From sequence record OR670491: DNA of 64,000 nucleotides. One strand, given 5' to 3'. Below, piece by piece: positions 3,827-44,060 of the stretch; position 1 is the stretch's first letter, and each line of letters starts with the position of its first letter. This DNA is from Escherichia phage vB_EcoM_JNE01. Position numbers and translations under genes: made by a program. The notes under the pieces were generated by a model. That model did not search any database. It was not told the origin of the DNA and saw only the letters and a program-made list of their open reading frames with translations.

Positions 3827-3873
3827 CTAATGTTGGGAGTTCATTGTGAACTCCCTTTACTATAGGTGAATGT

Positions 3874-6541: not shown

Positions 6542-6963
6542 TGAAATACTTTAAAACACAATTGGTTGTCAGTTCTGGTAAATCGCCGTGGGAGTTCTAT
6601 GAAGTTCCAGACGATTGGGACGAAGAATATTTAAAAGATTATGTACTTGAAGTAAATCAATGGGTTTACAACGCTGAATGTTTCACGTATAATGCAGTTG
6701 AAATCACAGAAACAGATTATCGTTTCGGTGTACAGGCAGTACAGTACTACGCATCTGATAGCAAGATGCTACAAGAGAACGTATTTCCTGTAAGAGAATG
6801 GGCGATTCTGCTTGCAAATCCGAATAAACCTGTTAGAATAGGTTATCCAAATATGCATCAGGTATATCGTATGAATGACAAACGTGAATTAAGTTATCAG
6901 TACGATTACAATGCTGCTAAATTTGGAATTCTTAAACAATTTCTAAAGGCATACCCAGTATGA
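6541..6963 (+). CDS. hypothetical protein
   Basis: 140-aa ORF tiling with neighbours. Confidence 0.55.
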   Translation: MKYFKTQLVVSSGKSPWEFYEVPDDWDEEYLKDYVLEVNQWVYNAECFTYNAVEITETDYRFGVQAVQYYASDSKMLQENVFPVREWAILLANPNKPVRIGYPNMHQVYRMNDKRELSYQYDYNAAKFGILKQFLKAYPV

Positions 6964-7298
6964 AAGAAGTAGAAAGTAAAGAGTGGATTGTTCGTTGCCA
7001 CTGCCATGACAAATCTGACCATGTTATTCATATTGCACAATATGACTTGACAGATGAGCACGGTGATGATAAAATGGGTCAATGTGTTATCACAACTCGT
7101 TTAGACCCACGAGCAGGATTATTTAAAAGAGCATGGATTGCGTTGAAGTATATGTTTGGTGTTGGGTGTTATCAGTACGTTGAAACAATAATTGATGTTG
7201 ACATTCTGAAAGAAGTCGTGTTACAATTAGAAGATAAACGAACTGATGACGAAAAAAAGGATGACCGCAGTTGTCGAACTGAAGTGAAAGTTTTATGA
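6960..7298 (+). CDS. hypothetical protein
   Basis: 112-aa ORF; 4-nt overlap with neighbours. Confidence 0.5.
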   Translation: MKEVESKEWIVRCHCHDKSDHVIHIAQYDLTDEHGDDKMGQCVITTRLDPRAGLFKRAWIALKYMFGVGCYQYVETIIDVDILKEVVLQLEDKRTDDEKKDDRSCRTEVKVL

Positions 7299-7489
7299 GT
7301 ACTGAACTTTATGAAAAAAAGTACTGTACAAGTTGTCTAACAGAGTATACAATACAAGGTATGGTGATTTGCACAAAGTGTCAGTCATCAAAATCATCAA
7401 CGTTTTTAGTCGATGACCGATTTAGTGATTTGAAACAGTTCAAAGCAAATCGTGTTCTTCGTGAATTTAGCAAACTAAATAAGGAATAA
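7295..7489 (+). CDS. hypothetical protein with Zn-ribbon-like CxxC...CxxC
   Basis: CTSC...CTKC pair within 64 aa. Confidence 0.45.
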   Translation: MSTELYEKKYCTSCLTEYTIQGMVICTKCQSSKSSTFLVDDRFSDLKQFKANRVLREFSKLNKE

Positions 7490-7492
7490 TCA

Positions 7493-7921
7493 ATGAATAT
7501 CGAACAAGTAATCCGCTCTAACGCTTTCTTCTCTGCTGAATCTGGTCGTGTTATCGAAGATATCAAAATCGAAGAACTGATGATCAACGTTAAGTACAAA
7601 GAACAGAACGAAGAAATGTCCAGCAGCATCTGTGCTCTACGTGCTCCATTCCGTAGTGAAAAAGCTAAGAAGCCAGCATATGTTCTAGCGATTGCTCTTG
7701 GTTGTGTAGTGAAGAAAGCAATTGACTCCAACCAACTAAATATCAAAGTTGCTCCAATGAACGATGAAGAGAACATCAACCTGGACTTCGACGGTCAACT
7801 GTCTGAAGAAGAATTCTTCCAGCTTTCTCTGATTCATGACTTCCGTAGCATCAACTTTGACCACATTCACTTCATCGACGAAATGGTTGAATTGGTTTCT
7901 CAGTACGAAGCTGAACTGTAA
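7493..7921 (+). CDS. EE-x-FFQxS-motif family protein
   Basis: 142 aa; motif SEEEFFQLSLIHDF about 35 aa from C-terminus; E. coli-optimal codon usage; followed by strong terminator. Confidence 0.65.
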   Translation: MNIEQVIRSNAFFSAESGRVIEDIKIEELMINVKYKEQNEEMSSSICALRAPFRSEKAKKPAYVLAIALGCVVKKAIDSNQLNIKVAPMNDEENINLDFDGQLSEEEFFQLSLIHDFRSINFDHIHFIDEMVELVSQYEAEL

Positions 7922-7935
7922 TAAGTAATAAAACA

Positions 7936-7959
7936 AGCCTCCTTGAAAGGGGGCTTTTG
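7936..7959 (+). terminator. rho-independent terminator
   Basis: Hairpin AGCCTCC-TTGAAA-GGGGGCT followed by TTTT. Confidence 0.6.
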
Positions 7960-7975
7960 TCATAAGGATATGTAA

Positions 7976-8533
7976 ATGAAGTTAATAGAACAAATTCAAA
8001 CCCTATCAAATCAGATTGCAGAGTTCTTGTCTGATAAAGAAGGATTTAAAGTAGAAATCACACACCACGGTGTAGGTATTGTTGTAACTTATCCAAGTGG
8101 TGATACAATGGATTATGATGTGTATGAGCTATTGCTATACACCCTAGCAGTGCGTAAGCTCGGTAGTGATATCGAACTTAAAATCAACAAAGATGAAAAT
8201 GGTAATGAAGTTTTTGCAGTAAACACTGATGCTAAACTTGACATTCCTGCTGGATTCACTAAAATCAATGAATCATTTATTGGTTTTAAACATGATTCTA
8301 TTCAGAGTGTTTTTATTGGTCGTCAAATTGCAAACACCCAATTCCCATACACTGTTATGACATTGTATAAAAACGGCAACTGGATGCGTCAGGATTTGGT
8401 AATGGCTGAAGTACTGTATGCACTAACCCATGACCTAAGCCTTGAACTCGTTGATAGTGCATTCTGCTTTAAACGTATTCGCAAACTATCTGCTGACATT
8501 CAAGCGGAACTAAAAGAACTAAATGATAAATAA
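7976..8533 (+). CDS. hypothetical protein
   Basis: 185-aa ORF between two terminators. Confidence 0.55.
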   Translation: MKLIEQIQTLSNQIAEFLSDKEGFKVEITHHGVGIVVTYPSGDTMDYDVYELLLYTLAVRKLGSDIELKINKDENGNEVFAVNTDAKLDIPAGFTKINESFIGFKHDSIQSVFIGRQIANTQFPYTVMTLYKNGNWMRQDLVMAEVLYALTHDLSLELVDSAFCFKRIRKLSADIQAELKELNDK

Positions 8534-8650
8534 ATGTACCAGAAATGGTTAACATAATCATGTTACTTTCCTCCCTTATACAATAATGATTTGTTATTCC
8601 ACATTTTATTTTTTCATTTCTCTTTTTTCGTACAAATTCTTTTTCGTACT

Positions 8651-8672
8651 GCCCCTACTTAGGGGCATTTTT
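8651..8672 (+). terminator. rho-independent terminator
   Basis: Hairpin GCCCCTACTTAGGGGC followed by a T-run. Confidence 0.6.
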
Positions 8673-8690
8673 ATTGCCTAAAATAAAGTT

Positions 8691-8718
8691 TTGACATTTG
8701 GTGATTAGGTGATATAAT
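8691..8718 (+). promoter_or_regulatory. sigma70-type promoter
   Basis: TTGACA (8691-8696), 16-nt spacer, TATAAT (8713-8718). Confidence 0.55.
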
Positions 8719-8745
8719 ATTCATATACATCTTAGAGGATACATT

Positions 8746-9174
8746 ATGATTTTCGATTTGCATTCATTTTTTAATAAATTCAACGAAGCTGATATCCCTA
8801 CGTGGGACGTAAAAATCAATCACACTAATAAATCATTGTGGCTACATAAAGGTAATGAATCGATCCAGATGATGATTAATGATGATTATGATATCACCCG
8901 CTTCTACCACATGGAAGAAAACAAAACCTTCGTTAAGGTTGCTTTCGACATATCTGATGATAATCTGTTCATCAACGTTCTGTCAGCCGGTTCTCATGTC
9001 CTGGTTGATGCTAAAATCAAAGAGATTAGTACTATCAAAAGTGAGGAAGGATTGTTTCAACGATCTGTTATTGAAGACCTGTACAATGTAGAATACTCTG
9101 ATATTGTGAAGCTGAAGGCAATCGTGGATAGTCTTAAAGCAAAAGCAAAAGAACTCATCAAAGAGGTATACTAA
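8746..9174 (+). CDS. EE-x-FFQxS-motif family protein
   Basis: 142 aa; motif SEEGLFQRSVIEDL. Confidence 0.6.
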   Translation: MIFDLHSFFNKFNEADIPTWDVKINHTNKSLWLHKGNESIQMMINDDYDITRFYHMEENKTFVKVAFDISDDNLFINVLSAGSHVLVDAKIKEISTIKSEEGLFQRSVIEDLYNVEYSDIVKLKAIVDSLKAKAKELIKEVY

Positions 9175-9641
9175 TGAAAAGCATTCTCCAAAACTGGAAT
9201 CCAGACACAATTAGTACTGAAACTAAATCGTCTTTTGCGTTCTCTATTATTAACATTGACGTTATAGATTATCTATCTATTGATTCGATGGACGCAAAGG
9301 AATGCACACATCGTGTGTGGTATGATTATGACCAAGGCGTAGAACTGACACTTACGTATAACACAGAAGATTTGGTTCAAAGTGAACAATACAGTGTGTG
9401 CCTTGATGGTACTATTGGTATTCGAAAGCATTACTTGAATGATGATGGGAAAGTTATTTCCGAAACAATCAATATCACAGATCATGGTTTTAATGAAGAA
9501 TCTTTCTTCATGGAAAGTACTATGCAGAATTTTGGCACAATGACTTTTGAAGATTATGTACATCTTAAAATTCTATATCGCAAAGTACTGGAAGTTGTTG
9601 CCGAACTGGAAAAGGTGAACAAACATGATCAACATTCATAA
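9174..9641 (+). CDS. EE-x-FFQxS-motif family protein (variant FFMES)
   Basis: 155 aa; motif NEESFFMESTMQNF; start overlaps previous stop. Confidence 0.6.
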   Translation: MKSILQNWNPDTISTETKSSFAFSIINIDVIDYLSIDSMDAKECTHRVWYDYDQGVELTLTYNTEDLVQSEQYSVCLDGTIGIRKHYLNDDGKVISETINITDHGFNEESFFMESTMQNFGTMTFEDYVHLKILYRKVLEVVAELEKVNKHDQHS

Positions 9642-10002
9642 AGAATTGGCATTATTAAAAAAAGATTTCGATGAAAATACATTAACACTATCATTAAATG
9701 CTGGTGTAATTAAAGTTGGTGTTTCCACGTCATACCTTGTTTACCGTAAGAACAGTAAAGAGGTCTTATATCATAATGAATCTGGTATAATTTGGGTGTA
9801 TGATATGGAAAAGAATGTCATCAATTACGTTACTGATTTTTATGCACATAAAACAGTTAATTTTGATGTTACTGAAGAGGAACTATTCCAACAATCTCTG
9901 ATAGAAGCTGATGTATTAATGCCAGAGGAAATTAAAATAATCACAGATGCGGTGCAGTATGTATTTGATAGTGTTCAAGAACATGAAGGTACTGAAGGAT
10001 AG
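9625..10002 (+). CDS. EE-x-FFQxS-motif family protein
   Basis: 125 aa; motif TEEELFQQSLIEAD. Confidence 0.6.
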   Translation: MINIHKELALLKKDFDENTLTLSLNAGVIKVGVSTSYLVYRKNSKEVLYHNESGIIWVYDMEKNVINYVTDFYAHKTVNFDVTEEELFQQSLIEADVLMPEEIKIITDAVQYVFDSVQEHEGTEG

Positions 10003-10005
10003 TCC

Positions 10006-10461
10006 ATGAATAAATTACAGGTTTTTGAATATCTAACACGTACATCAATGATGGATTTACCAGAAGTAACATGTAAGAACCCAAAAGAATTAATACGAAT
10101 CTATCATATTGTTGAGGATTTACAATACAGAATCAATACTGAATATGATTATGTTACTGTGTCTGTACAAAACTTAAACTGGAGTGGTTCAGCAGCGGAA
10201 ATGTTCAACATTTCATACGATACAGCTAATGATTGTTTAAGGGTATTCATTCGAGAAAGTTCTTATTCCCATATGGATTTTACTGAAGTTCGTGAGGTTA
10301 GTAATTGCCTAACGGAAGAAGGGTTTTTCCAAGAATCATTGGTACAGAATTTAGTGTTCACTCAAGATGAATTAAAATCTGTTATTGATATTTTGGAGTA
10401 TATACAGCTAAAAGCCAGAGCGAAATACAAAATAACAGAACAGATTCCGCGAGGTATATAA
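10006..10461 (+). CDS. EE-x-FFQxS-motif family protein
   Basis: 151 aa; motif TEEGFFQESLVQNL. Confidence 0.6.
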   Translation: MNKLQVFEYLTRTSMMDLPEVTCKNPKELIRIYHIVEDLQYRINTEYDYVTVSVQNLNWSGSAAEMFNISYDTANDCLRVFIRESSYSHMDFTEVREVSNCLTEEGFFQESLVQNLVFTQDELKSVIDILEYIQLKARAKYKITEQIPRGI

Positions 10462-10908
10462 ATGTTTTTTAATCCAGTACCTTTTTTTAATTTGTTAGGT
10501 GTAACATCAATCCCAGATTTAAAGATTGGTGAAGATTATTCTAATAATTACATACTTGCCCTGGAAATTGAATCGGATGATTTCAACTGCTATGTAACAT
10601 ACGATGCAAATGAAAATTCAGTAGCGGAACTGGTATTTGTATACATATATAACGTTTATAGCGGTGATGGCACTGGGGTTAAATCAGTTGAGGTTGAATC
10701 ATATGGCATCAAAGGTTCATTGATATTGAATGAAAACAACGTCGAATTCAATCTGGATGATTACAGTACTGAAGAAGCATTGTTTCAACTTAGTACTATC
10801 CAAGATTGCTGCTTAACTTTGAAAGATATAAAAGAATTCAAAGAACAGGTTGACAGTGTATATGAGATGTTATACAATGCTTATCCTGAATTTGAGATTA
10901 GAAGATAA
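10462..10908 (+). CDS. EE-x-FFQxS-motif family protein
   Basis: 148 aa; motif TEEALFQLSTIQDC. Confidence 0.6.
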   Translation: MFFNPVPFFNLLGVTSIPDLKIGEDYSNNYILALEIESDDFNCYVTYDANENSVAELVFVYIYNVYSGDGTGVKSVEVESYGIKGSLILNENNVEFNLDDYSTEEALFQLSTIQDCCLTLKDIKEFKEQVDSVYEMLYNAYPEFEIRR

Positions 10909-10917
10909 GGTATAAAA

Positions 10918-11178
10918 ATGACTAAAGTAGTTCGCAAACGCCACATGATGAACATGGATGAATTCCGTACTTTTGACAAATATCGTACAATGTTCCGTAT
11001 GCTGTCTAAGGGCCACCCTATTGTTATTGTAACTGAAAGTTACATGTCACCAGAGATGATGTTTGGAAACTATGAAAAGGTCTTTATGCTTTATGTGAAG
11101 CGTGAACTTCTAACTATTAAAACATTAGCAGAAGCCACTGATGAAGATATGGATGGTGATAATACATTCACCATGTGA
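10918..11178 (+). CDS. hypothetical protein
   Basis: 86-aa ORF. Confidence 0.5.
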   Translation: MTKVVRKRHMMNMDEFRTFDKYRTMFRMLSKGHPIVIVTESYMSPEMMFGNYEKVFMLYVKRELLTIKTLAEATDEDMDGDNTFTM

Positions 11179-11255
11179 GGATGTTATGCAAGATAAACCG
11201 AAAGAACCACTTGACCGTGACGATGATTTCTATGATGAACGATACGGAGAGAAAG

Positions 11256-11513
11256 ATGAATGAGCATAATGCAGTACTGAAAAAGATTATGTCAGAACTT
11301 GGCAGTGAGCTTGCTGTAACTGAAGAAGAATACCAATCATGGAAGAAAGATTTCGAACAACTTCCTGAACATGATAAAGTGTTTAATCTTCTTGGCGTAA
11401 TCAGCCAGTACTTACTAAGTGCAGGTGAAAGTAAAGCAGCATCTTCAATCCTTGCATCTGCAATCATTTGTACTTCACGTTGGTGTGACGAAAAATCTCT
11501 GGATGATTTCTAA
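11256..11513 (+). CDS. hypothetical protein
   Basis: Track ORF 11175-11513 trimmed to the ATG at 11256, preceded by a GGAGAGA RBS. Confidence 0.45.
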   Translation: MNEHNAVLKKIMSELGSELAVTEEEYQSWKKDFEQLPEHDKVFNLLGVISQYLLSAGESKAASSILASAIICTSRWCDEKSLDDF

Positions 11514-11565
11514 ATACTGTGCTATAATGAATTTATAGTACAACAATATAAAAAAAGGATTTTAT

Positions 11566-13455
11566 ATGAAACCAATCAGAGTACTGTCACTTTTTAATGG
11601 AATGAGTGTGGGATACATGGCACTTCAAGATGCTGGTATCCCAGTTGAAACGTATTACTCTTCCGAAATTGATAAGTATGCTATTGCTGAATCCCAAGAG
11701 AATTTCCCTGATATTATCCAACTAGGTGACGTTACCAAGTGGAAGGATTGGGATATTGAATGGGATAAGATTGACCTCCTTATGGGAGGGTTCCCGTGTT
11801 TCCCTGAAGGAACAATGATAATGACCGACAAAGGTCACAAAGATATTAAAGACATTCAAATTGGTGACATGGTACTAACTCATACTGGTCAATATCATCC
11901 AGTATTGAGTACAGGTGTTAAAAAAGCCCCTACGCGTATTATTTCAGGGCAAGGACATTTACCTATTGAATGTACTGATAATCACCCATTTTATTCTAGA
12001 AAAATGTCGTCTAGCTGGAATAACAGCATTAGACAATATGAACGTTCCTTCACTGAACCTGAGTGGATTGAGGCACACGAATTAACATCTGAACATTTTC
12101 TTTGTAATGTTAAATCAATTGAATCAGGTAAATCAACAAAAGATGAAAAATTCTGGTATTTTATGGGCCGCTTTATGGGTGATGGATGGACTTATAAAGT
12201 AAAGCGAAATAATAGAAAGAATAGTTACCAGTATAGAGTTTTCATCTGTTGTGCACATGATGAATTTGATGAATTGATTTCATGTTTTGAAGGTATGAAC
12301 ATGAAATATAATTATGTCAAAGAAAGAACATCATATAAATTTTATATATGTTCAAAAGAACTAGTTGAATTCTGTGAACAGATGGGTAAAGGTGCATCTA
12401 ATAAGAAAGTTCATCCTAATTTATTCAATGAATGTGTACAGAACCAGAAAGCATTCATTGATGGATATTTTGACGCAGATGGTCATGTTGATAGTAATTG
12501 TTATAAATTCACAACAACATCAATAGACTGCGTATTAGGTGTCCAACAATTAATAATGAATGTTTACGGAAGACATTCCAACATAAGCCTTACAGAACCA
12601 GAAAAAACTAAAGTTATTGAAGGACGAATTGTAAACCAAAAACCGTATTATGTTTTATCATATAAAAAAGACCAACCTAAAAAAGAGGAAGCTTTTTATG
12701 AAGAAAATTATTCATGGGTTAAAGGTGTAAAAACGAGTATTTCTACTGGTGAATGGAAAACTGTATATAATTTTGAAGTTGCCGTTGACAATACTTATAC
12801 CGCAAATAACATAGTTGTTCACAATTGTCAAGCCTGGTCGGTTGCAGGTAAACAGGGTGGAATAAATGATCCAAGAGGAATGTTGTTCCATACAATGGTT
12901 GATATTTACGAGCACATCAAAAGTCTCAATCCAGACTTGAAAGTACTGTTCGAGAATGTTAAAATGAAAGACGATTTCAAGCAATACATCAACAGTATTC
13001 TTGATATGACACCAGTACTGATAAATTCCCATAATTACACGCCTCACTTCAGACAACGTTATTATTGGTACAGTTCTGATAAATTACTAACTCCACCTGC
13101 ATTAATGAATGCACCTGTGCTTCAGGACATTCTGGATGATGGTTGGTATACTGACCGTACCGCTTCGTACTGTATAGATGCCAACTACTTTAAGGGTGGT
13201 GATTGTAATCAATACTTCAATAAGTCCAGGCGACAATTGGTGTTCAAGAACCCTGATATCAATCGTCAGTACTTACTTGAGAATGGTAAAAGAAACATTG
13301 ACTACCGTCACTTAAGTGTAGTAGAATGTTGTAAATTGCAAGGTGTACCAACTGATTATTTCAAGTTATCTAGTAATACACAGGCATATAAAATGCTAGG
13401 GAACGGTTGGACAATGCCAGTCATTTCACATTTGCTTAAAGAGATATTCTTTTAA
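11566..13455 (+). CDS. DNA (cytosine-5)-methyltransferase (Dcm-like) interrupted by an in-frame intein
   Basis: Motif I LFNGMSVGY; motif IV GGFP|CQAWSVAG split by a 343-aa insertion; motif VI ENVK; motif X MLGNGWTMPV. Confidence 0.85.
   Translation: MKPIRVLSLFNGMSVGYMALQDAGIPVETYYSSEIDKYAIAESQENFPDIIQLGDVTKWKDWDIEWDKIDLLMGGFPCFPEGTMIMTDKGHKDIKDIQIGDMVLTHTGQYHPVLSTGVKKAPTRIISGQGHLPIECTDNHPFYSRKMSSSWNNSIRQYERSFTEPEWIEAHELTSEHFLCNVKSIESGKSTKDEKFWYFMGRFMGDGWTYKVKRNNRKNSYQYRVFICCAHDEFDELISCFEGMNMKYNYVKERTSYKFYICSKELVEFCEQMGKGASNKKVHPNLFNECVQNQKAFIDGYFDADGHVDSNCYKFTTTSIDCVLGVQQLIMNVYGRHSNISLTEPEKTKVIEGRIVNQKPYYVLSYKKDQPKKEEAFYEENYSWVKGVKTSISTGEWKTVYNFEVAVDNTYTANNIVVHNCQAWSVAGKQGGINDPRGMLFHTMVDIYEHIKSLNPDLKVLFENVKMKDDFKQYINSILDMTPVLINSHNYTPHFRQRYYWYSSDKLLTPPALMNAPVLQDILDDGWYTDRTASYCIDANYFKGGDCNQYFNKSRRQLVFKNPDINRQYLLENGKRNIDYRHLSVVECCKLQGVPTDYFKLSSNTQAYKMLGNGWTMPVISHLLKEIFF
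11797..12825 (+). mobile_element. intein with LAGLIDADG homing-endonuclease domain, inserted at the MTase catalytic PCQ motif
   Basis: Begins C-F-P-E-G-T-M-I-M-T-D-K-G (Hint block A); ends NIVVHN followed by +1 Cys; two LAGLIDADG-like motifs (YFMGRFMGDG, FIDGYFDADG). Confidence 0.8.
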
Positions 13456-13456
13456 T

Positions 13457-13936
13457 ATGAACTATTTCCAAGACCGTAATAAAATACAAATTGCTCGTAA
13501 TCACAGAGCGAAGAAGGAGACTTTACGTTTCAATACACATTACCCTTTCGTCGGTGACACAGTACTGTATGAATGTTATACAAAAAAGAAAGTGTTTGTT
13601 GGCTCTGGTATTGGTACGGTCTTGGATATTAAACAATATTATTCGGATAAGATGCGTGTCAAATACACCGTACAGGATAATACAACAAACGAAGTATACG
13701 AGGTTATGTACAACGTCCATGTTTATCCATTGGATACGGTTGTTCTACTTACAAGAAGAGAAAAAACTATGTTTTACAGTGGCTATGATAAACTAACTAA
13801 TCAAATTATTCCTAATACTTTAGGTAAATTTAAAACTGACACAGAACAAGCACTCGTTAGTAAACTGGGTGTGGACTGGAAAAAAGAAAATTCTTTTATT
13901 GAAATTCGTCTAGTTGAAGTTACACTAAAAGACTGA
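13457..13936 (+). CDS. hypothetical protein
   Basis: 159-aa ORF directly after the MTase stop. Confidence 0.5.
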   Translation: MNYFQDRNKIQIARNHRAKKETLRFNTHYPFVGDTVLYECYTKKKVFVGSGIGTVLDIKQYYSDKMRVKYTVQDNTTNEVYEVMYNVHVYPLDTVVLLTRREKTMFYSGYDKLTNQIIPNTLGKFKTDTEQALVSKLGVDWKKENSFIEIRLVEVTLKD

Positions 13937-13999
13937 TATAATACTATCCACGTATACAATGCGTGGATTTTTTATACCCCCAAAAAAAGGTCAAATTAA

Positions 14000-14452
14000 A
14001 TGAAAATTGATGAGTTGGTGCATTTGCTTCCAAATGTTTACAAGAATGTTTTATTCACTAAAGAACTACATAAGCAAGGTTTCTCTGTTCGCCCAGCATT
14101 ACTTGCATCATCGTATCGATATGTAACAACATATGGAACGGTAGAATTCATTTCATATGACTATGAAGTAGACCCCGATTGTTATACATTATCTATTAGT
14201 ATATACAGTGAAGAGGAAGATTCTGGTCGTGAGATTAAAAATATTTCATATGATACTGATGGACAGTTTAGTCTTGAGTACTGTGATGATAGTATAGAAG
14301 AATTCTATTTAGAAGATGTAAATCGTTTGTGTGATGATGATTTTGTGTTCCAACAATCAACACTAACACCATTGGGTAATACTAATGGTAAAACATGGGA
14401 AACCTGTTTGTATTATCTGCAAGCAATTTGCACAGCTTTTAAGGGGGTTTAA
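14000..14452 (+). CDS. EE-x-FFQxS-motif family protein (divergent)
   Basis: 150 aa; motif DDDFVFQQSTLTPL. Confidence 0.55.
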   Translation: MKIDELVHLLPNVYKNVLFTKELHKQGFSVRPALLASSYRYVTTYGTVEFISYDYEVDPDCYTLSISIYSEEEDSGREIKNISYDTDGQFSLEYCDDSIEEFYLEDVNRLCDDDFVFQQSTLTPLGNTNGKTWETCLYYLQAICTAFKGV

Positions 14453-22281: not shown

Positions 22282-22849
<568 letters not shown>

Positions 22850-22881
22850 TACTGATAAATATTAATGAAAGGTATAGAGAA

Positions 22882-23079
22882 ATGACTAAATCCGAACTTC
22901 TGGCTTTATTAGAAAATTATCCAGATGATGCATGTATTGAAGTAGTTCACACTGCACAACATTTTGACATTGAAGATGTTGTACGATACAATGACAAAGG
23001 TGTGATGATTATGGAACTATGTATCGGTGCTTTGAAAACTGTGCCAGAATCAACTAAACGAAAATCCCAAAAGGAATAA
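22882..23079 (+). CDS. hypothetical protein
   Basis: 65-aa ORF. Confidence 0.45.
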   Translation: MTKSELLALLENYPDDACIEVVHTAQHFDIEDVVRYNDKGVMIMELCIGALKTVPESTKRKSQKE

Positions 23080-23085
23080 AATATT

Positions 23086-23319
23086 ATGGAAACTAATACA
23101 ATTTTAGATGTAGTAAACAGTGTTAATACTGGTGACTTTGTTCACATTCTTTTATCCAACATCCGCGTTAAGGGTATTGTTGAAAGTGTTGATTCTGAAG
23201 TTCTAACTATTGTTGAAGTTGATCCATACGACAATAATAAATCAGTTCGTCTGTGCATTGATGTTTCCAAAATTGTAGCACTCGGTACAGAAATTATTAC
23301 TGAAGAAACTAATCTATAA
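23086..23319 (+). CDS. hypothetical protein
   Basis: 77-aa ORF. Confidence 0.45.
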   Translation: METNTILDVVNSVNTGDFVHILLSNIRVKGIVESVDSEVLTIVEVDPYDNNKSVRLCIDVSKIVALGTEIITEETNL

Positions 23320-23330
23320 AACGACAATAA

Positions 23331-23407
<77 letters not shown>

Positions 23408-23460
23408 CTTAAGAGGATTTAATATGTTTAAAGATGAACGTCCAGATTTGTAAATAATCA

Positions 23461-23489
23461 TTGACTAAATAATCCAGTACTGATAAAAT
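23461..23489 (+). promoter_or_regulatory. promoter with CAGTACTG spacer motif, upstream of tRNA-Ser
   Basis: TTGACT, 17-nt spacer containing CAGTACTG, TAAAAT. Confidence 0.5.
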
Positions 23490-23495
23490 AAATTT

Positions 23496-23582
<87 letters not shown>

Positions 23583-23589
23583 TCAATAT

Positions 23590-23671
<82 letters not shown>

Positions 23672-23692
23672 ATTTTAATTTAAGGTGTATCC

Positions 23693-23857
23693 ATGACGCA
23701 TGAAGAATGGATGAATGATATTAATTTTAGATATTCGGGTATCGGTAGTTGGCGAAAATATCATTGGGAAATTATATCAGACCCAGCAGAATACGATAAA
23801 CTTATAAACCATGAAGTATATCCGTGGTTCTTTATTGAAATAATGGTACGAATATGA
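23693..23857 (+). CDS. MTHEEW-family micro-protein (54 aa)
   Basis: MTHEEWMNDINFRYSG...; first of three tandem copies. Confidence 0.45.
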   Translation: MTHEEWMNDINFRYSGIGSWRKYHWEIISDPAEYDKLINHEVYPWFFIEIMVRI

Positions 23858-24018
23858 CGCATGAAGAATGGATGAATGACATTAATTTTAGATATTCGGG
23901 TTTCGGTAAATGGCTAAAGTATCATTGGGAATTTATTACTGATCCTCAAATGTACGATAAACTTATAAATGATCAAGCATATGAAATTTACTTATTTGAA
24001 ATACTGGTCAGAACATGA
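23854..24018 (+). CDS. MTHEEW-family micro-protein (54 aa)
   Basis: Near-identical N-terminus to previous; ATGA overlap. Confidence 0.45.
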   Translation: MTHEEWMNDINFRYSGFGKWLKYHWEFITDPQMYDKLINDQAYEIYLFEILVRT

Positions 24019-24179
24019 CGCATGAAGAATGGATGAGAAAACAAAAGCTAACATGGAATCCTTATTGTTACCAGTTAGACCCAAGAATGTGGGATGTGAT
24101 ACGTATTAAATGTATGTACAAATCATTTCTTGGTGATATAATGGATGTTGAAGTACTGATGAATTTAGTACATCGATAA
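24015..24179 (+). CDS. MTHEEW-family micro-protein (54 aa)
   Basis: MTHEEWMRKQKL...; ATGA overlap. Confidence 0.45.
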   Translation: MTHEEWMRKQKLTWNPYCYQLDPRMWDVIRIKCMYKSFLGDIMDVEVLMNLVHR

Positions 24180-24209
24180 TAAAAATCTTATTTAAATGGG
24201 ATTGATATC

Positions 24210-24571
<362 letters not shown>

Positions 24572-24575
<4 letters not shown>

Positions 24576-24600
24576 CTAAATAGTTCAGTACTGATAAAAT
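24572..24600 (+). promoter_or_regulatory. promoter with CAGTACTG spacer motif
   Basis: TTGACT-AAATAGTTCAGTACTGA-TAAAAT. Confidence 0.5.
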
Positions 24601-24757
24601 GGTAAGGCGTGGAAATATGTTTACAGTAGTTACATAGTAGCCTGTACGCCCCACGTCAAGGTAGCCGAAAGGCAAGTTAAAAAGGGTGGTTATAAAGCTG
24701 AATTAACAGCGGCGTTTAAAAGCGTCACCATCCATTTTTTTAATTAAAGTTGGTGAT

Positions 24758-25259
<502 letters not shown>

Positions 25260-25264
25260 AAATC

Positions 25265-25354
25265 GGTCCCGTTGCCTAGCGTCCGAAGGCAGCCGACTCA
25301 TAATCGGTCACAGTTAATGACACGCCACTGGTTAGAATCCAGTCGGGACCACCA
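25265..25354 (+). tRNA. type II (long variable arm) tRNA with CAT anticodon; identity unclear
   Basis: Acceptor GGTCCCG/CGGGACC; anticodon arm GCCGA-CTCATAA-TCGGT; 18-nt variable region; atypical T-loop TTAGAAT; CCA encoded. Confidence 0.55.
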
Positions 25355-25358
25355 ATTA

Positions 25359-25431
25359 GACTCTGTAGTTCAGTTGGTAGAACGCTTCACTCATAATGAA
25401 GAAGTCGCTGGTTCAATCCCAGTACTGACCA
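25359..25431 (+). tRNA. tRNA-Met(CAT)-like; 3' acceptor strand not complementary (possible pseudogene)
   Basis: Canonical D-arm and anticodon arm CTTCA-CTCATAA-TGAAG, T-loop TTCAATC, but 5' GACTCTG does not pair with 3' ACTGACC; 3' end abuts the low-GC minus-strand gene. Confidence 0.45.
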
Positions 25432-25439
25432 CAAAAAAA

Positions 25440-27137
<1,698 letters not shown>

Positions 27138-27207
27138 AATATTCTCCTGAATTTTCTAAAAGTTATAATAATATTTAGTTACAATATTTATGATATAGAT
27201 TAAAAAG

Positions 27208-27236
27208 TTGAAATGTGTTCAAAAATGTGGTATAAT
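27208..27236 (+). promoter_or_regulatory. sigma70-type promoter
   Basis: TTGAAA, 17-nt spacer, TATAAT with upstream TG. Confidence 0.45.
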
Positions 27237-27242
27237 ACCTCT

Positions 27243-27486
<244 letters not shown>

Positions 27487-27514
27487 CTTTTTAATTTAAA
27501 AGTACTTTACTGTA

Positions 27515-28084
27515 GTGTTTAGTATCGTATATTGTAATCAAAAGGATATAATAAAACTCATGGAGAGAGTTGAAGAATGGCGTGATGTTGTTGGTTATGA
27601 AGACCATTTCCAAGTTAGTAACAAAGGTAGAATTTACAGCAAAAGAACAAATAAAATTTTAGTTCAAGGTACTAATAAAAAAGGTTATAAAGTATTAAGT
27701 ACTAGAATTGGTGGAAGAACTGGAGTATGTAAGTGTTTTAGGGTTCATATTTTAGTGGCTCAAGCATTTATATCAAATCCACATAATAAGCCCATTGTAA
27801 ACCATAAAGATGGCAATAAACAAAACAACGAAGACTGGAATTTAGAATGGTCTACATATAGTGAGAATACTAATCATGCTTATAAAAATGGTTTAACAAT
27901 ACCATTAAAAGGAACTGAACAAGTTCAATCCAAATTAACCGAAGATGATGTTAGATACATACGTTCAGTGTATAAACCATATGATAAAACATATGGTGCA
28001 TCTATGTTAGCAAAACAATTTGGTGTACATCATAGTTTAATATCGGATATAGCATCACATAAATCATGGAAGCATGTTAAGTAA
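27515..28084 (+). CDS. HNH homing endonuclease
   Basis: N-terminal motif EEWRDVVGYEDHFQVSNKGRIYS; HNH motif HILVAQAF...NHKDGNKQNN; low GC. Confidence 0.8.
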   Translation: MFSIVYCNQKDIIKLMERVEEWRDVVGYEDHFQVSNKGRIYSKRTNKILVQGTNKKGYKVLSTRIGGRTGVCKCFRVHILVAQAFISNPHNKPIVNHKDGNKQNNEDWNLEWSTYSENTNHAYKNGLTIPLKGTEQVQSKLTEDDVRYIRSVYKPYDKTYGASMLAKQFGVHHSLISDIASHKSWKHVK

Positions 28085-28103
28085 TAAAAAAACAGTACTG
28101 AAC

Positions 28104-28135
<32 letters not shown>

Positions 28136-28146
28136 CAAACATATTC

Positions 28147-28222
28147 GGCCCTGTATACAATCCAGGAATGTACTCTGCTCATAACAGATGTAAGGTCGGG
28201 GCAGCACCGACCAGGGCCACCA
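28147..28222 (+). tRNA. tRNA-like gene with CAT anticodon and non-canonical T-loop
   Basis: Acceptor GGCCCTG/CAGGGCC + A + CCA; anticodon hairpin TCTG-CTCATAA-CAGA; T-arm GTCGG-GGCAGCA-CCGAC (not TTCRANY). Confidence 0.4.
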
Positions 28223-28382
28223 ATTTTGGACACATTAATCTTCGATGGTAATGCTGGTTAATATCTTACGGCTGTAAAATGCAATACATTACATATTGCT
28301 TCAGGTACAGAGATATAAAGATTAATTAATAAGGTATCCTTATTTTGTCCAATCCTTAATAACTAGAAATGGTGGGAAAGAA

Positions 28383-28829
28383 ATGAAAGGTGTTTCAATT
28401 TTTTACGATTACCATGAACAAGGTTTACCACATCAGATTGCTGGAATCTATTCTACGTCTGATAAAACCGAAGAAGAGATGCGTACTGAATTATTGTCGC
28501 TAATTGGTGAGAGAAGTTTCCATGAACGTGATCAACCAATTTTCATTAACCACACACATTTGTATGCAAAAAGTTTGCTAGGTGAAGAACTTGATAAAAA
28601 GGTGGAATACACTTTGAAACAGTTCTTCCCAATCGCACTTGATGTAGTTGGTTTCAAATCATCGGATTTCAAGTTCATGTACTATGATGTTGAAGCATAT
28701 GAGTTCGCTTGGAACAATCGTTATCATAAACAATTACACCAATATCGTTTAGAACTTCAACATGAAGCGGCTGAAGCATATAAAGCAAAACGAGCAGCAC
28801 AGAAGCTTGAAGGTAACGTACAGAAATGA
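28383..28829 (+). CDS. hypothetical protein
   Basis: 148-aa ORF. Confidence 0.5.
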   Translation: MKGVSIFYDYHEQGLPHQIAGIYSTSDKTEEEMRTELLSLIGERSFHERDQPIFINHTHLYAKSLLGEELDKKVEYTLKQFFPIALDVVGFKSSDFKFMYYDVEAYEFAWNNRYHKQLHQYRLELQHEAAEAYKAKRAAQKLEGNVQK

Positions 28830-29128
28830 TAGAATCTATCTTATGTGTACTGTTGCCAATTTTAGTAGTTGCTTTGATATGTCTTTATTATGGTTACAGT
28901 ACTGTAATTGATAAAAAGCAAGTTTACGTCATTACATTCAGTACTACACATATTGAGTTTGGTAATGTACATACCGGTATCACTTATATTGCATATCGTT
29001 GTAAGTACTTCCATAAGTTCAAATCTTATGATATGATCTATTACTGTGATGAATCCAACGTGAACCGTTATATTGACATAAACGATGAATCAAAAAAATC
29101 GTTTTACAGTTTTAAAGAATTAAAATAA
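28826..29128 (+). CDS. hypothetical membrane protein
   Basis: 100 aa; hydrophobic N-terminus. Confidence 0.5.
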   Translation: MIESILCVLLPILVVALICLYYGYSTVIDKKQVYVITFSTTHIEFGNVHTGITYIAYRCKYFHKFKSYDMIYYCDESNVNRYIDINDESKKSFYSFKELK

Positions 29129-29208
29129 ATGTAGACGGATGTATTCAGTACTGAATCACCAGGGGAGGTTGTAATTCCCGATTCAGTAGCTTTTTAAGCG
29201 GTTTCGTG

Positions 29209-29255
<47 letters not shown>

Positions 29256-29256
29256 G

Positions 29257-29309
<53 letters not shown>

Positions 29310-29327
29310 CGAGGTACTCCGGTATGC

Positions 29328-29360
<33 letters not shown>

Positions 29361-29468
29361 AATATTGTTGCAACAGTATTCAGTACTACTTTTTAATTGA
29401 CACAACTTTGAATGAGGTGTATTATGTTCCAAGAAGAAAACTGGGGTTTTTAACATAAAGGGGAATGT

Positions 29469-29576
29469 ATGAAAGTGAGTAAAGAAACGGCTAAACAGCT
29501 TGAAGAACTTTGTTCAGCACAACCTATGCCTACACTTGCTTTAATCAAGTTAATGCGTCGAAATAAGCAAAAATAA
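29469..29576 (+). CDS. small hypothetical protein (35 aa)
   Basis: ATG after AAAGGGGAA RBS; below track size cutoff. Confidence 0.25.
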   Translation: MKVSKETAKQLEELCSAQPMPTLALIKLMRRNKQK

Positions 29577-29659
29577 AAATGATAAATAATACAGTAAGAT
29601 GACCTCCCCTCAATACGAAAGAGTATGGAGACTTGTTGGTTATCTTACTTCTTAAATTA

Positions 29660-29732
29660 GCCTTCTTAACTCAGTTGGTAGAGTAATCGCCTTGTAAGCG
29701 ATAAGTCATCCGTTCAAGTCGGATAGAGGGCA
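29660..29732 (+). tRNA. tRNA-Thr (anticodon TGT)
   Basis: Acceptor GCCTTCT/AGAGGGC; D-arm ACTC-AGTTGGTAG-AGT; anticodon arm ATCGC-CTTGTAA-GCGAT; T-arm ATCCG-TTCAAGT-CGGAT. Confidence 0.8.
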
Positions 29733-29734
29733 CA

Positions 29735-29816
<82 letters not shown>

Positions 29817-41437: not shown

Positions 41438-41935
41438 ATGACTACTGTTTATATTGATAAGCGTTTAGGCGTATTAATGACTGATTCAAGGGTGACAAGT
41501 ACTCGCCCACGAATTTTTTTGGGTATCTTCCCATTAAAAGAAAAAAACCACTACGGTGTTGTTTCACAGAAAACCTTGTATGTTCATGACCGTCTCTTCA
41601 GTGCAGCAGGATCAGTTTCTGAAATTGACAAAGTACTGAATTATTTAATTACTGGTGAAAAGGTAATTCCTTCCAAAAAGCTATCGTGCCATTGTGTGTT
41701 GTTATCTAAGGACTATTGTATTCATTTTGTCCTAGTAGACGGTAAGTTCGTTAAGAAGTTAGTTTTTCTACACAAGGACTACACGTTTTTTATGGGTAGT
41801 GGTGGTGAATATATGATTGACGCAGCTTGTCATGAGGACTATAGTACTCTCCAAGCTAAAGTACTGGATACTTTTATGAAAGTAAAAAATCATGATTGTT
41901 TCAGTGATGATAATATTAATGTATATCGTTTTTGA
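41438..41935 (+). CDS. HslV/ClpQ-like Ntn-hydrolase peptidase (proteasome beta-type), tentative
   Basis: N-terminal Met-Thr-Thr; TDSRVT (cf. HslV GDGQAT); Lys at ~33; AAGS; GSGG motif at ~120; 165 aa. Confidence 0.45.
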   Translation: MTTVYIDKRLGVLMTDSRVTSTRPRIFLGIFPLKEKNHYGVVSQKTLYVHDRLFSAAGSVSEIDKVLNYLITGEKVIPSKKLSCHCVLLSKDYCIHFVLVDGKFVKKLVFLHKDYTFFMGSGGEYMIDAACHEDYSTLQAKVLDTFMKVKNHDCFSDDNINVYRF

Positions 41936-41957: not shown

Positions 41958-42920
41958 TTGAAAAAGCTAGATCTAAATGCAATTGCTGATGAAGTACTGG
42001 ATGAATGTTTTGCTAGTGAAGAAGTCAACGTATTAGAGGCAATTGATGCCGTTGAAGAAGAACATGATGACCACAAGTTCGAGAAGCCTAACACTGGTAT
42101 CAGTTTGACTCGTCCTAAAGGTGTAACGAATGAAATGCTCATCCAGGAAGTACGTGATGGCATTAACGTTGAAAAGAACATTGATCTTCTGGTACGTTAC
42201 AACTACCCAATGATTGTTAGTACTGCTCGTAAATGTACATGTTTCATCCCATTTGAAGATAAGATTTCATATGGTGTTGAAGGTTTAATGCGAGCGATTC
42301 ATACATTCGATCCTACCAAGAACGTTAAGTTCATTACCTATGCAACAACAACAGTGTATATGACAATCTATAACGAAAGTGCAGACGCTAACTACCTAGT
42401 GCACTTCCCACGTTATATGAGTGTTAACAACATTTATGTGAAACGTTGTGTAGAAGCGTACCAAAAGAAATATGGTAGGTTCCCAACTCCAGAGATGGTC
42501 GCTGAAGAGACTGGTATTGAGATTCAACACGTTAAGAATTGTCTAACCTACACCAATACTTATATGGCATTGGATATGAAATTGAGTACTGATTCAGAAA
42601 GTACCTTGTCTGACATTGTTACTACAGTTGATCCTGATTACAACTTAGGTGCAGAAACTATCAGTATCCCACTGGTACAAAGTATTGCAGATATGATGCA
42701 TAATCTATCTGAAAAAGACCGTGAGTTGATTGAACGTGTACATGGTATTGGTTCAGCACAAGAACCAGAAACGCTACGAGAAATCATTGAGAGCGGTTTT
42801 GAAGATGAGAAGGGTAAAGTCATTACTGCTCGTTCTTCCTTGCACCGTAAGTACTCTGACGCAATGGAACGCCTACGTAAGATGGTGAAGTCCAGAGGTT
42901 ATGAGTTCGAAGATTTTTAA
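41958..42920 (+). CDS. sigma70-family RNA polymerase sigma factor
   Basis: Region 2: GLMRAIHTFDPTKNVKFITYATTTVYMTI...FPRYM; region 4: LSEKDRELIERVHGIG...ETLREI...ARSSLHRKYSDAMERLR; apparent TTG start after GGAG. Confidence 0.7.
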   Translation: MKKLDLNAIADEVLDECFASEEVNVLEAIDAVEEEHDDHKFEKPNTGISLTRPKGVTNEMLIQEVRDGINVEKNIDLLVRYNYPMIVSTARKCTCFIPFEDKISYGVEGLMRAIHTFDPTKNVKFITYATTTVYMTIYNESADANYLVHFPRYMSVNNIYVKRCVEAYQKKYGRFPTPEMVAEETGIEIQHVKNCLTYTNTYMALDMKLSTDSESTLSDIVTTVDPDYNLGAETISIPLVQSIADMMHNLSEKDRELIERVHGIGSAQEPETLREIIESGFEDEKGKVITARSSLHRKYSDAMERLRKMVKSRGYEFEDF

Positions 42921-42927
42921 GATTAAA

Positions 42928-42954
42928 GGGTTGACTTCGGTCAACCCTTTTTTT
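42928..42954 (+). terminator. PeSL-like terminator hairpin
   Basis: GGGTTGAC-TTCG-GTCAACCC followed by a T-run. Confidence 0.65.
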
Positions 42955-43439
42955 ATGGGACAAATTCGTAAATGGTGATACAATGATCTATGCACAACCA
43001 CAATGACAGTACTTGTACTGATAATCTTCCCTAATTCACTTGAAAACGTAAAGGATAGATGAGCTTTTCATTGTAGCGAACAGCAAAAGAAACCCGTTAG
43101 ATGTGGGCATAGTTTGAACCCCTCACGGCAATGCGGCTGTATAAAGAACCACGTTAGGATGGCTGGTGGTTCCTCGATAGACATATAAGGATAACACCTT
43201 ACGAATTATCTAAGGGAGAGTTATCAGATTTTGTACAATATAGTTGCGTCCAAAATTTGAGTACTCACATTAAGTATTTGATTGCATAGATACTTAATGA
43301 AGATACACTATGTTTAAAAGTGTAGACCGTCATATGAAACTGAAGTAGAGAGAAACAGGATGATCCGCTTTCGTGCTCTTTAAGAGTAATCTTCAATGCA
43401 ATAGCTCTGATACCATCAGCGTCAAATTCCCCTCTGTGT

Positions 43440-43447
43440 GGGGGGGG
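43440..43447. repeat. G8 homopolymer tract in a long non-coding region
   Basis: GTGTGGGGGGGGAAG read directly from sequence. Confidence 0.5.
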
Positions 43448-43558
43448 AAGAAAAATCCCTTTCTCAAATCCCGTCAATATTATAAAGTCCTTGACAGTTA
43501 TTATACATTCGCGTAAGATACGTAGTATCAGAAGCGAACAGACATCTCGAAGAGATGG

Positions 43559-43792
43559 ATGATTAACATTAAGGAACATCTAATGAATTCAACAATCTTC
43601 TTAGTAGCAGCTCTTTCAATGCAAAGCGGTGTACAAATCACTCCAATGAATTCCATGAATCAATGTATTTCTGTTCGTGATAGTACCTACGAACAGGTCA
43701 ATAAAAATATCTGGATGTCTATTGACAAAGAACAGATGTGGTGTTATAACAGTAATACAAAAGTTAAACTGTTTGTTGGTGAGAAAGAATAA
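43559..43792 (+). CDS. hypothetical protein
   Basis: 77-aa ORF. Confidence 0.45.
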   Translation: MINIKEHLMNSTIFLVAALSMQSGVQITPMNSMNQCISVRDSTYEQVNKNIWMSIDKEQMWCYNSNTKVKLFVGEKE

Positions 43793-43795
43793 TAG

Positions 43796-43824
43796 TTGAC
43801 ACGTAAGAAGTTCTAGAGTATAAT
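43796..43824 (+). promoter_or_regulatory. sigma70-type promoter
   Basis: TTGACA, 17-nt spacer, TATAAT. Confidence 0.55.
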
Positions 43825-43874
43825 TTCTACATTGAGTACTGAACTAAATCATTAATTAATCAAGAGGGTTTATC

Positions 43875-44060
43875 ATGCAAGTTATCGTTCTTATCGTTGG
43901 TATCGTACTGGGTGTTTATGGTCATTCCTGGATGCAGGAGAAGTTTCCTAATACTCGTCCAGACTTCTGTAGCACTACGGTGAGTTCTGAACTATCTAAA
44001 GATAGCAAAGATAGCATTGGTACTAAACTGGATAAAGTACTGAACGTAATTAACGAGTGA
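43875..44060 (+). CDS. small membrane protein
   Basis: 61 aa; hydrophobic N-terminus. Confidence 0.45.
   Translation: MQVIVLIVGIVLGVYGHSWMQEKFPNTRPDFCSTTVSSELSKDSKDSIGTKLDKVLNVINE

Follow-up and report, generated by a model that had tools for sequence, protein, structure and literature searches.

The stretch of DNA analysed here, referred to as the window, comprises 64,000 nucleotides (nt) of Escherichia phage vB_EcoM_JNE01 (sequence record OR670491). It is part of the genome of a Rak2-like (Asteriusvirus-type) jumbo coliphage, for which the closest record is phage Turkey5 (98.6% identity). The subject is a gap of about 600 base pairs (bp) at 42,955–43,558, bounded on the left by the end of a sigma-factor ORF (open reading frame) at 42920 together with its intrinsic terminator, and on the right by the next plus-strand ORF of at least 60 amino acids, which begins at 43559. 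An earlier note, made from the sequence alone, had placed the gap correctly, and its statement that no plausible plus-strand ORF occurs there agrees with our finding of none of at least 60 amino acids before 43559. The base composition is also as described: the G+C content is 0.463 at 43080–43200 (and 0.475 at 43350–43450) against a window mean of 0.350, and a run of eight G residues occupies 43440–43447. Of the 100-nt segments of the window 1.1% have a G+C content of at least 0.48, and this G run is the sole one of six or more within the 64 kilobases (kb). Among the candidates listed in that note, a structured non-coding RNA receives strong support from a conserved promoter, covariation, pseudoknots and a strand asymmetry in G·U pairs. 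We conclude that the gap is very probably the gene for a large structured non-coding RNA. The features are collected in Table 1.

Conservation of the gap in related phages, a check that had been proposed together with covariation, is evident, and the helices covary. BLASTN found homologues in 61 phage records, all of them Rak2-like, from phages of Escherichia (32), Salmonella (8), Erwinia (8), Yersinia (4), Pectobacterium, Cronobacter, Serratia and Xanthomonas (2 each) and Klebsiella (1); RaK2 and K64-1 gave no blastn match. Within Asteriusvirus the gap alone is 93–95% identical, compared with 84–92% for the gap plus its flanks. In the other genera a core of about 450 nt is retained at 68–75% identity, always within a gene-free gap of 630–700 bp and beside different genes. 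In CBB, GAP32, BF and Yen9-04 the RNA lies upstream of a phrog_15843 protein, and in 7t3 and at a second 121Q copy it adjoins endonuclease VII; phrog_15843, the downstream neighbour of the Mimasvirus- and Eneladusvirus-type copies, has no informative domains. The RNA unit is conserved independently of its neighbouring genes.

The homologous gap is mostly unannotated in GenBank, with a few records showing short ORFs that are inconsistent in strand and frame. All 40 aligned family members have at least four stop codons in every one of the six frames, and close orthologues differ by insertions or deletions of 1, 4 and 8 nt. The ORFs in the gap of the window have no PHROG match. This includes the minus-strand ORF of 104 amino acids, which had rightly been said to lack conserved features and is not preserved in close relatives. 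A small ORF following a Shine–Dalgarno-like UAAGGGAG (MHQFCTI in CBB) was considered and dropped, as it is not conserved. Genome annotation can be corrected here, since spurious small ORFs are called across the RNA in some deposited genomes.

A promoter precedes the RNA throughout the family. Its layout is TGnTATAAT with TGAAAC(G) or TGGGAC(A) about 14 nt further 5′, and both TGnTATAAT and TGAAAC/TGGGAC are invariant or nearly so in the 40 aligned members. From its position, transcription in the window is predicted to start near 42991. The same motif class has been described in CBB and GAP32 as a ‘second promoter type’, TGAAACG with a TATA −10 element; CBB contains 18 copies, 11 of which are upstream of DNA-synthesis genes (PMC5259590). 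In the paralogue class near 24–35 kb of CBB, GAP32 and Yen9-04 (loci L110, L020, L033, L097, L027, L129 and L144) a GC hairpin followed by U6, reading AGGACnnn...GUCCUUUUUU, separates the promoter, which it follows directly, from the conserved core; a role as terminator, attenuator or stabilising 5′ stem is possible.

The ends of the RNA were placed from the promoter (5′) and from where conservation stops (3′). RNAalifold applied to 12 sequences predicted 80 base pairs, and compensatory changes were seen at 41. With R1, a covariance model built for the 5′ third, 53 members were then re-aligned: 95.5% of the cells are paired, compared with 28–44% when the partners are slid and 73.4% when they are shuffled, double changes occur in 24 of the 33 pairs and the covariation score is 0.471 versus 0.118. 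The full length was tested with a hand-built model of 103 pairs on a 40-member MAFFT alignment. Here 89.7% of the cells are paired (38–44% slid, 73.7% shuffled), 67 of the 103 pairs show double changes, and the covariation score of 0.411 (versus 0.158) was reached by none of 500 shuffles. The local helices were recovered by an unbiased search for stacked columns that covary, as were three long-range ones (PK0, PK1 and PK2). The model contains at least 16 helices and three supported pseudoknots. Register shifts kept hairpins Ha, H7 and H14 from being counted on the MAFFT alignment, and per-sequence folding was used for them instead.

Table 1. Position of the predicted RNA, its structural elements and the features that border it (window numbering; RNA letters for elements of the RNA).
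Feature	Position	Strand	Basis or remarks
Sigma-factor gene	41958–42920		Sigma70_r2/r3 domains
Intrinsic terminator of sigma-factor gene	42925–42957	+	11-bp hairpin (42925–42950) plus T run
Predicted promoter of RNA	42956–42984	+	TGGGACA 42956–62, 13 nt, extended −10 TGATACAAT 42976–84; consensus scan
Predicted structured non-coding RNA, ∼490 nt	42991–43480	+	nhmmer and covariance-model homology, covariation, no ORF
Pseudoknot PK0	43000–06 / 43068–74	+	Covariation scan; 5′ domain 43000–43074, encloses Ha, H1 and H2
Hairpin Ha	43007–20	+	Forms in 34 of 36 distinct members folded singly
Hairpin H1	43031–58	+	Conserved loop GAAAAYGUA; pair counts, covariance-model alignment
Hairpin H2	43063–65 / 43075–77	+	Pair counts, covariance-model alignment
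H3	43080–84 / 43136–40	+	99.6–100% paired, 3 of 5 pairs covary; encloses H4
H4	43094–107 / 43119–28	+	Within H3
H5 hairpin GAACCAC / GUGGUUC	43146–43172	+	Both-side changes at 7 of 7 pairs, 90–92% paired
Single-stranded junction CUCGAUAGACAUAUAAG	43173–43189	+	43176–89 is the invariant GAUAGACAUAUAAG
H7 enclosing H6	H7 43190–95 / 43220–25; H6 43197–201 / 43211–15	+	Forms in 39 of 39 distinct members folded singly
H8	43226–33 / 43251–58	+	Conserved loop UACAAUAUAGnUnCGUC; pair counts
H9 hairpin	43268–43299	+	10 of 10 pairs covary
Pseudoknot PK1	43281–87 (AUUGCAU, H9 loop) / 43396–402 (AUGCAAU)	+	94% paired, 6 of 7 pairs covary
H10 hairpin	43305–09 / 43319–23	+	Register differs in the subgroup of the window
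Invariant GACCGU	43326–31	+
Pseudoknot PK2	43329–33 / 43360–64 (H12 loop)	+	100% paired, 3 of 5 pairs covary
Three-way junction	H11 43341–45 / 43391–95; H12 43348–52 / 43368–72; H13 43375–79 / 43383–87	+
H14 hairpin	43409–43423	+	Forms in 23 of 25 distinct members; register varies between subgroups
H15 C/G hairpin	43427–43449	+	G8 (43440–47) is the 3′ arm; forms in 38 of 38 distinct members
3′ tail	43450–43480	+	Invariant CAAAUCYCGUCA at 43465–76
Sigma-70-type promoter of next gene (TTGACA, 17 nt, TAAGAT)	43491–43519	+	Right boundary of RNA

The helices are interspersed with strands that hardly vary. The H3/H4 domain (43080–43140) contains the invariant strands GAAACCCG and CGGCAAUGCGGC, and GAUAGAC in the single-stranded junction that follows H5 is identical in all 40 aligned members. 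The helices of the three-way junction (43341–43395) are 97–100% paired, with 11 of the 13 pairs covarying, and are followed directly by the 3′ strand of PK1. A hairpin module resembling H8, with the loop UACAAUAUAGAUCCGUC, is located between H7 and H9 in most members, inside H13 in one paralogue class and at both sites in two members; such relocation is what would be expected of a true three-dimensional RNA architecture. A helix between the 3′ tail and GAUGAG at 43058–63 may close the molecule; it was predicted by RNAalifold, and the invariant sequence offers no covariation. Two features seen in some members were set aside: terminator-like hairpins inside certain paralogues are the tips of longer expansion stems, and a kissing-loop palindrome, UUGUACAA, is present in only about half of the members.

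The pattern of changes also indicates which strand is functional. In H15 the G arm is invariant while the opposite arm alternates between C and U (at one pair, CG in 20 members and UG in 20). A C-to-U exchange opposite an invariant G preserves pairing on the plus strand only, which points to the plus strand as the functional one. Over the whole model G·U cells outnumber A·C cells by 246 to 99. The run of at least five G residues is invariant in the 40 aligned members, is mostly six long and ranges from G5 to G8 across homologues; it is base-paired, and its reading as a variable or contingency tract is not supported. The earlier note had also listed stable stems, among them GAACCAC/GTGGTTC (43146–52 / 43166–72). 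This stem exists and all seven of its pairs show compensatory changes, but the stability of the stems in the region is not exceptional. For 42991–43480 the folding energy gives z = −1.2 for the plus strand, which is unremarkable, so thermodynamic stability was dropped as evidence and the signal is one of evolutionary covariation rather than of folding energy. The minus strand folds better (z = −3.1). Despite this, covariation, G·U asymmetry and the promoter agree in indicating the plus strand as the functional one.

The RNA occurs more than once in the genomes of these phages. To find paralogues, IMG/VR was scanned with an exact pattern and the matches were filtered with an nhmmer profile, since loose pattern scans returned mostly chance matches; as an exact motif is required, the counts are lower bounds. 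Five complete genomes that were checked contain two to four diverged copies each at dispersed sites. On the plus strand these are found at 90 kb (the orthologue of the window copy), 193 and 327 kb in 121Q, at 24, 93, 174 and 335 kb in Yen9-04, at 32, 258 and 336 kb in CBB and at 93, 174 and 335 kb in BF; GAP32 has at least two, near 35 and 341 kb. The paralogues are 53–64% identical to the window copy, and orthologous positions are maintained across genera. Several uncultivated contigs of 350–371 kb likewise have two to four copies. A scan of the contig collection yielded no true member among the first 120 loci listed. The window itself contains one copy. The possibility that the RNA is a repeat was considered, as BLAST reports four ‘places’ per phage record, and rejected: these arise because the hairpin of the adjacent terminator recurs, and it is this hairpin alone that repeats.

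Copies are also present in bacterial chromosomes. A search for antisense complementarity to the Escherichia coli genome found none and revealed island copies instead. Among 5426 complete E. coli genomes searched by BLAST, two unrelated strains, LR-29-1 and EEC_W5, have a full-length copy. The island that carries it measures about 10 kb, is situated between ffs and ybaA, and contains a tyrosine integrase split by IS3, several hypothetical genes, a DuOB/DUF488/mSLOG-DUF4326 set and a resolvase. The copy scores 375 bits with nhmmer and 132 bits with R1, and is preceded by the same promoter type (TGGGAT...TGTGATATAAT). Three metagenomic members are chromosomal islands as well, with the RNA 0.05–2.2 kb from a large serine recombinase. 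The first (L217) shows the chromosomal genes pilin-hofB-hofC-coaE-zapD, the recombinase and the RNA; the second (L243) the recombinase, the RNA, LprI, a Cap4-like nuclease and an SMC-like ATPase; and the third (L165) chromosomal tilS, the RNA, two ParB/RepB-like genes and the recombinase. The island copies belong to two separate paralogue clades of a neighbour-joining tree, which implies that the RNA gene was transferred repeatedly and as a unit. Two island proteins had no tblastn match in Rak2-like phage records, and local BLASTP of the island ORFs against the fetched phage loci gave one weak match only, to the DUF4326 domain in an uncultivated contig.

The gene directly 3′ of the RNA is homologous between two of the islands (E = 4e-11); its product has no Pfam domain and belongs to a domain-less family that is widespread in Enterobacterales. 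Further islands that carry this downstream gene, of Klebsiella/Raoultella, Yersinia and a second Klebsiella type, have no full-length match to the RNA. At about 3303–3470 of the Klebsiella/Raoultella island (L519) a phage-type promoter (TGGGATAACC...TGTGATATAAT) is accompanied by the 3′ ∼130 nt only, in which the expansion hairpin, the C/G hairpin and CAACAAAUCUCGUCAG are retained. This is either a ‘mini’ form or a deletion remnant.

Some further observations concern the islands themselves. The family (L517, which is E. coli LR-29-1 at 3845–14189, and L519–L525) is integrative and occupies several chromosomal sites in Enterobacterales. A tyrosine or large serine integrase comes first, followed in order by a protein of about 500 amino acids, a domain-less one of 257 or 337, another of 118 amino acids, cargo and a resolvase. 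Among the cargo are SMODS, DuOB/DUF488/mSLOG-DUF4326, a Cap4-like nuclease and LprI. The islands look like defence islands or satellites with a jumbo-phage-type promoter. In the LR-29-1 island, positions 8858–8909 contain a 13-nt repeat, ATTATCGATCGTT, as two tandem copies and one inverted copy in AT-rich DNA, about 450 nt 3′ of the island RNA and 5′ of the 257-amino-acid gene; it looks like an operator or iteron.

From these comparisons we infer that the element acts as a transcribed RNA and is neither a DNA-level spacer nor protein-coding. Host RNA polymerase would transcribe it rightward during infection, possibly assisted by a phage factor that recognizes the TGAAAC/TGGGAC motif. The product would act as a compactly folded RNA in its own right, for instance by serving a factor of host or phage as scaffold or partner, or as a ribozyme-like or self-assembling RNA like ROOL and GOLLD. 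Our confidence in any specific mechanism is low. As a matter of preference we rank a self-standing folded RNA first, a cis-acting leader second and an RNA-primed replication origin third; the first is favoured because of the invariant junctions, the pseudoknots, the relocation of the H8-like module and the transfer of the RNA together with its own promoter.

Several points weigh against this assignment. The RNA gene is a prediction from sequence comparison. The better folding of the minus strand over 42991–43480, given above, runs counter to it. No intrinsic terminator is found at the 3′ end of the RNA, which may consequently be just the 5′ part of a longer transcript. The paralogue positions, conserved and dispersed as they are, are more easily reconciled with action in cis than with a free RNA that acts in trans, and the same is true of the Klebsiella-type form that consists of a promoter and the 3′ ∼130 nt.

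These last two points bring in the cis-acting leader, which we regard as rather unlikely but as the strongest of the alternatives. The nascent folded RNA would act on its own polymerase or transcript, through processive antitermination like that of HK022 put or through processing or stabilisation, and would in this way control the downstream gene block. No terminator separates the RNA from the co-directional downstream genes, but a separate sigma-70 promoter does stand between it and the next gene, with a similar motif aligned at this place in the CBB- and GAP32-type copies. The several copies per genome each head a different gene block, and the region downstream in the window is rich in intrinsic terminators. 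The islands speak on both sides: the island RNA heads co-directional island genes, and Klebsiella-type islands retain promoter and 3′ domain upstream of island genes, yet in L165 the downstream genes converge on the RNA. Finally, known antiterminator RNAs measure 65–120 nt, compared with about 490 nt and three pseudoknots here.

As a replication origin or packaging region, another of the candidates in the earlier note, the gap comes into question only through a function that the RNA might have. It is unlikely that the locus is an RNA-primed replication origin, for which ColE1 RNA II, T4 oriF/oriG and the mitochondrial CSB II element are precedents. The transcript would form a persistent RNA–DNA hybrid aided by the G tract and be processed to a leading-strand primer; the copies would be several origins, and the islands satellites that borrow an origin. 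The RNA has its own promoter and no terminator, and its invariant G tract, about 35 nt from the 3′ end, is followed by AT-rich DNA; this tract is, however, base-paired within the RNA. Dispersal of the copies around genomes of about 350 kb would suit multiple origins. The GC skew has no inflection at 43 kb, but it is uniformly positive across the window and so of little informative value. A consensus scan of 42700–43900 found no minus-strand sigma-70-like promoter of the RNA I type. We know of no primer RNA with invariant junctions and three pseudoknots over 490 nt. In favour of an origin, the island copies have integrases and ParB/RepB-like genes nearby, as well as AT-rich DNA that bears 13-nt repeats. 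In CBB, moreover, the promoter class precedes DNA-synthesis genes, and a T4-type replisome is present in these phages (PMC5259590).

An element that acts at the level of DNA and has no need of transcription, for example an array bound by proteins or single-stranded DNA with a structure of its own, is very improbable. G·T pairs do form in single-stranded DNA too, and many members contain the palindrome TTGTACAA. This palindrome is not conserved family-wide, the conserved promoter lies directly upstream in every member, and duplex DNA would hardly account for long-range covariation in a pseudoknot that spans 115 nt. A decayed or unrecognised protein gene, as represented by the minus-strand ORF or by the short hypothetical ORFs annotated across the gap in some GenBank records, has next to no likelihood given the inconsistency of those annotations between records, the stop codons, the indels and the missing PHROG matches reported above, a pattern of change that is that of covarying paired sites and not codon-like, and the fact that no relative has an ordinary ORF there and the gap is better conserved than the flanking genes, so that the decayed gene named in the earlier note can be discarded.

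A more far-reaching proposal can be made, which we put forward tentatively as a possibility. The RNA would represent a new class of large pseudoknotted functional RNA that is used both by phages and by chromosomal parasites or defence islands, whether as a ribozyme, as a new ribonucleoprotein core or as a device that needs no protein to reprogram RNA polymerase or to prime DNA synthesis. The paralogues would each serve a distinct locus or target, and the island copies would hijack or decoy the phage function. The conserved phage-specific promoter, the long-maintained paralogues and the repeated exchange with defence-laden islands suggest that the RNA has a central part in jumbo-phage infection and in the conflicts among mobile elements. 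The RNA is accessible to experiment, since it is carried by phages of E. coli that can be cultivated (121Q, PBECO4, G17, phAPEC6 and others) as well as by two E. coli strains with sequenced genomes.

The surroundings of the gene in the window can be described briefly. The terminator of the sigma-factor gene is the left boundary and lies outside the RNA. Its hairpin belongs to a family, AAAGGGTTGAC-TTCG-GTCAACCCTTTTTTT, with about ten occurrences in the window in both orientations, further examples being at 50010, 52011, 53572, 54068, 55979, 61088, 62142, 62726 and 63032. The gene directly 5′ of the sigma factor (41438–41935) matches an HslV-like peptidase PHROG (phrog_1040, E = 2e-7), and its product additionally matches a family of unknown function. 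On the other side, the ORF at 43559–43792 encodes 77 amino acids. Its start is probably placed too early, and the real one is more likely to be ATG 43583, because an AAGGAA ribosome-binding site is present there and the PHROG match is limited to residues 33–75. The neighbouring proteins in the window are without informative domains.

Elsewhere in the window a cluster of eight or nine tRNA genes occupies 22282–29813. It includes a tandem tRNA-Thr(TGT) pair, two tRNA-Met and an unusual ARAGORN call, a tRNA-Ser with anticodon ACT. Beside the cluster, about 2 kb (25449–27514) have no plus-strand ORF of at least 60 amino acids, and a promoter-like site of the same class as the RNA promoter is found at 27209–27236 (TGAAAT, 13 nt, TGTGGTATAAT). 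This stretch may be the site of another non-coding RNA.

The RNA matches no known family. The Rfam scan that had been suggested for the gap was run and no family matched there: at gathering thresholds, Rfam 15 (4227 models) returned tRNAs only for the window, at E ≤ 10 the region 42800–43700 gave nothing but terminator-like chance matches, and at E ≤ 5 no match fell inside the RNA in 11 diverse homologous loci. ARAGORN, which covers tRNA and transfer-messenger RNA, calls eight tRNAs elsewhere in the window and none in the gap. A group I intron was rejected, there being no Rfam match (RF00028) and no exons, as the RNA comes after a stop codon, a terminator and its own promoter. The same applies to a group II intron, including ORF-less and class C forms (no match to RF00029 or D1–D4, no 5′ GUGYG and no domain-V-like hairpin), and to RNase P RNA, for which there is no Rfam match at E ≤ 10; the stretch ACAGnnnAACCCGCUU is similar to CR-V but is here a hairpin loop engaged in PK2. 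Full-text literature searches found no description of the RNA family. The family is absent from Rfam and from the searched literature and is regarded here as new.

Phage and bacterial RNAs of several hundred nucleotides with a complex fold are rare, the usual examples being OLE, GOLLD, ROOL and HEARO, and such large RNAs have repeatedly proved to be ribozymes, ribonucleoprotein cores or self-assembling particles. Among smaller phage RNAs, those of HK022 put act in cis and without dedicated proteins. Like the RNA described here they are present in more than one copy per phage genome, just 3′ of promoters and 5′ of long co-directional gene blocks. The put RNAs consist of two stem-loops in about 65–70 nt, whereas the jumbo-phage RNA is about seven times larger and a second promoter usually precedes the next gene. 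The R-loop primers ColE1 RNA II and T4 oriF/oriG are closer in size (about 500 nt) and share an own promoter, the absence of a terminator, a G-rich element and, in these phages, the context of a T4-type replisome. In contrast to them, the jumbo-phage RNA has a far more elaborate tertiary structure, and neither an antisense regulator nor a skew signal was found.

Long ORF-free RNAs near a promoter are also known from PA5oct, a Pseudomonas jumbo phage of the same broad clade. Its ncRNA002 and ncRNA004 are promoter-proximal, free of ORFs and 450–620 nt long, and ncRNA002 accounts for up to 5% of the phage reads in RNA sequencing (PMC7318152). They were rejected as homologues, as neither locus has an nhmmer match or a match to R1. 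For the PA5oct RNAs there is transcript evidence and no structural model, while for the RNA described here the reverse is true.

The nearest likeness is with ROOL and GOLLD, Rfam families of large ‘ornate’ RNAs that occur in phages, prophages and plasmids and have been studied by cryo-electron microscopy (PMC12286853). They too are structured, measure several hundred nucleotides and have phages and mobile elements as carriers, and neither they nor the jumbo-phage RNA have a known protein partner or function. The jumbo-phage RNA is not a member of either family, since 12 diverse members gave no match to the Rfam models and there is no homology in sequence or structure. It shares with ROOL and GOLLD a complex pseudoknotted fold with invariant junctions, and differs from them in residing in phages of Enterobacterales, away from tRNA genes, as several diverged paralogues per genome.

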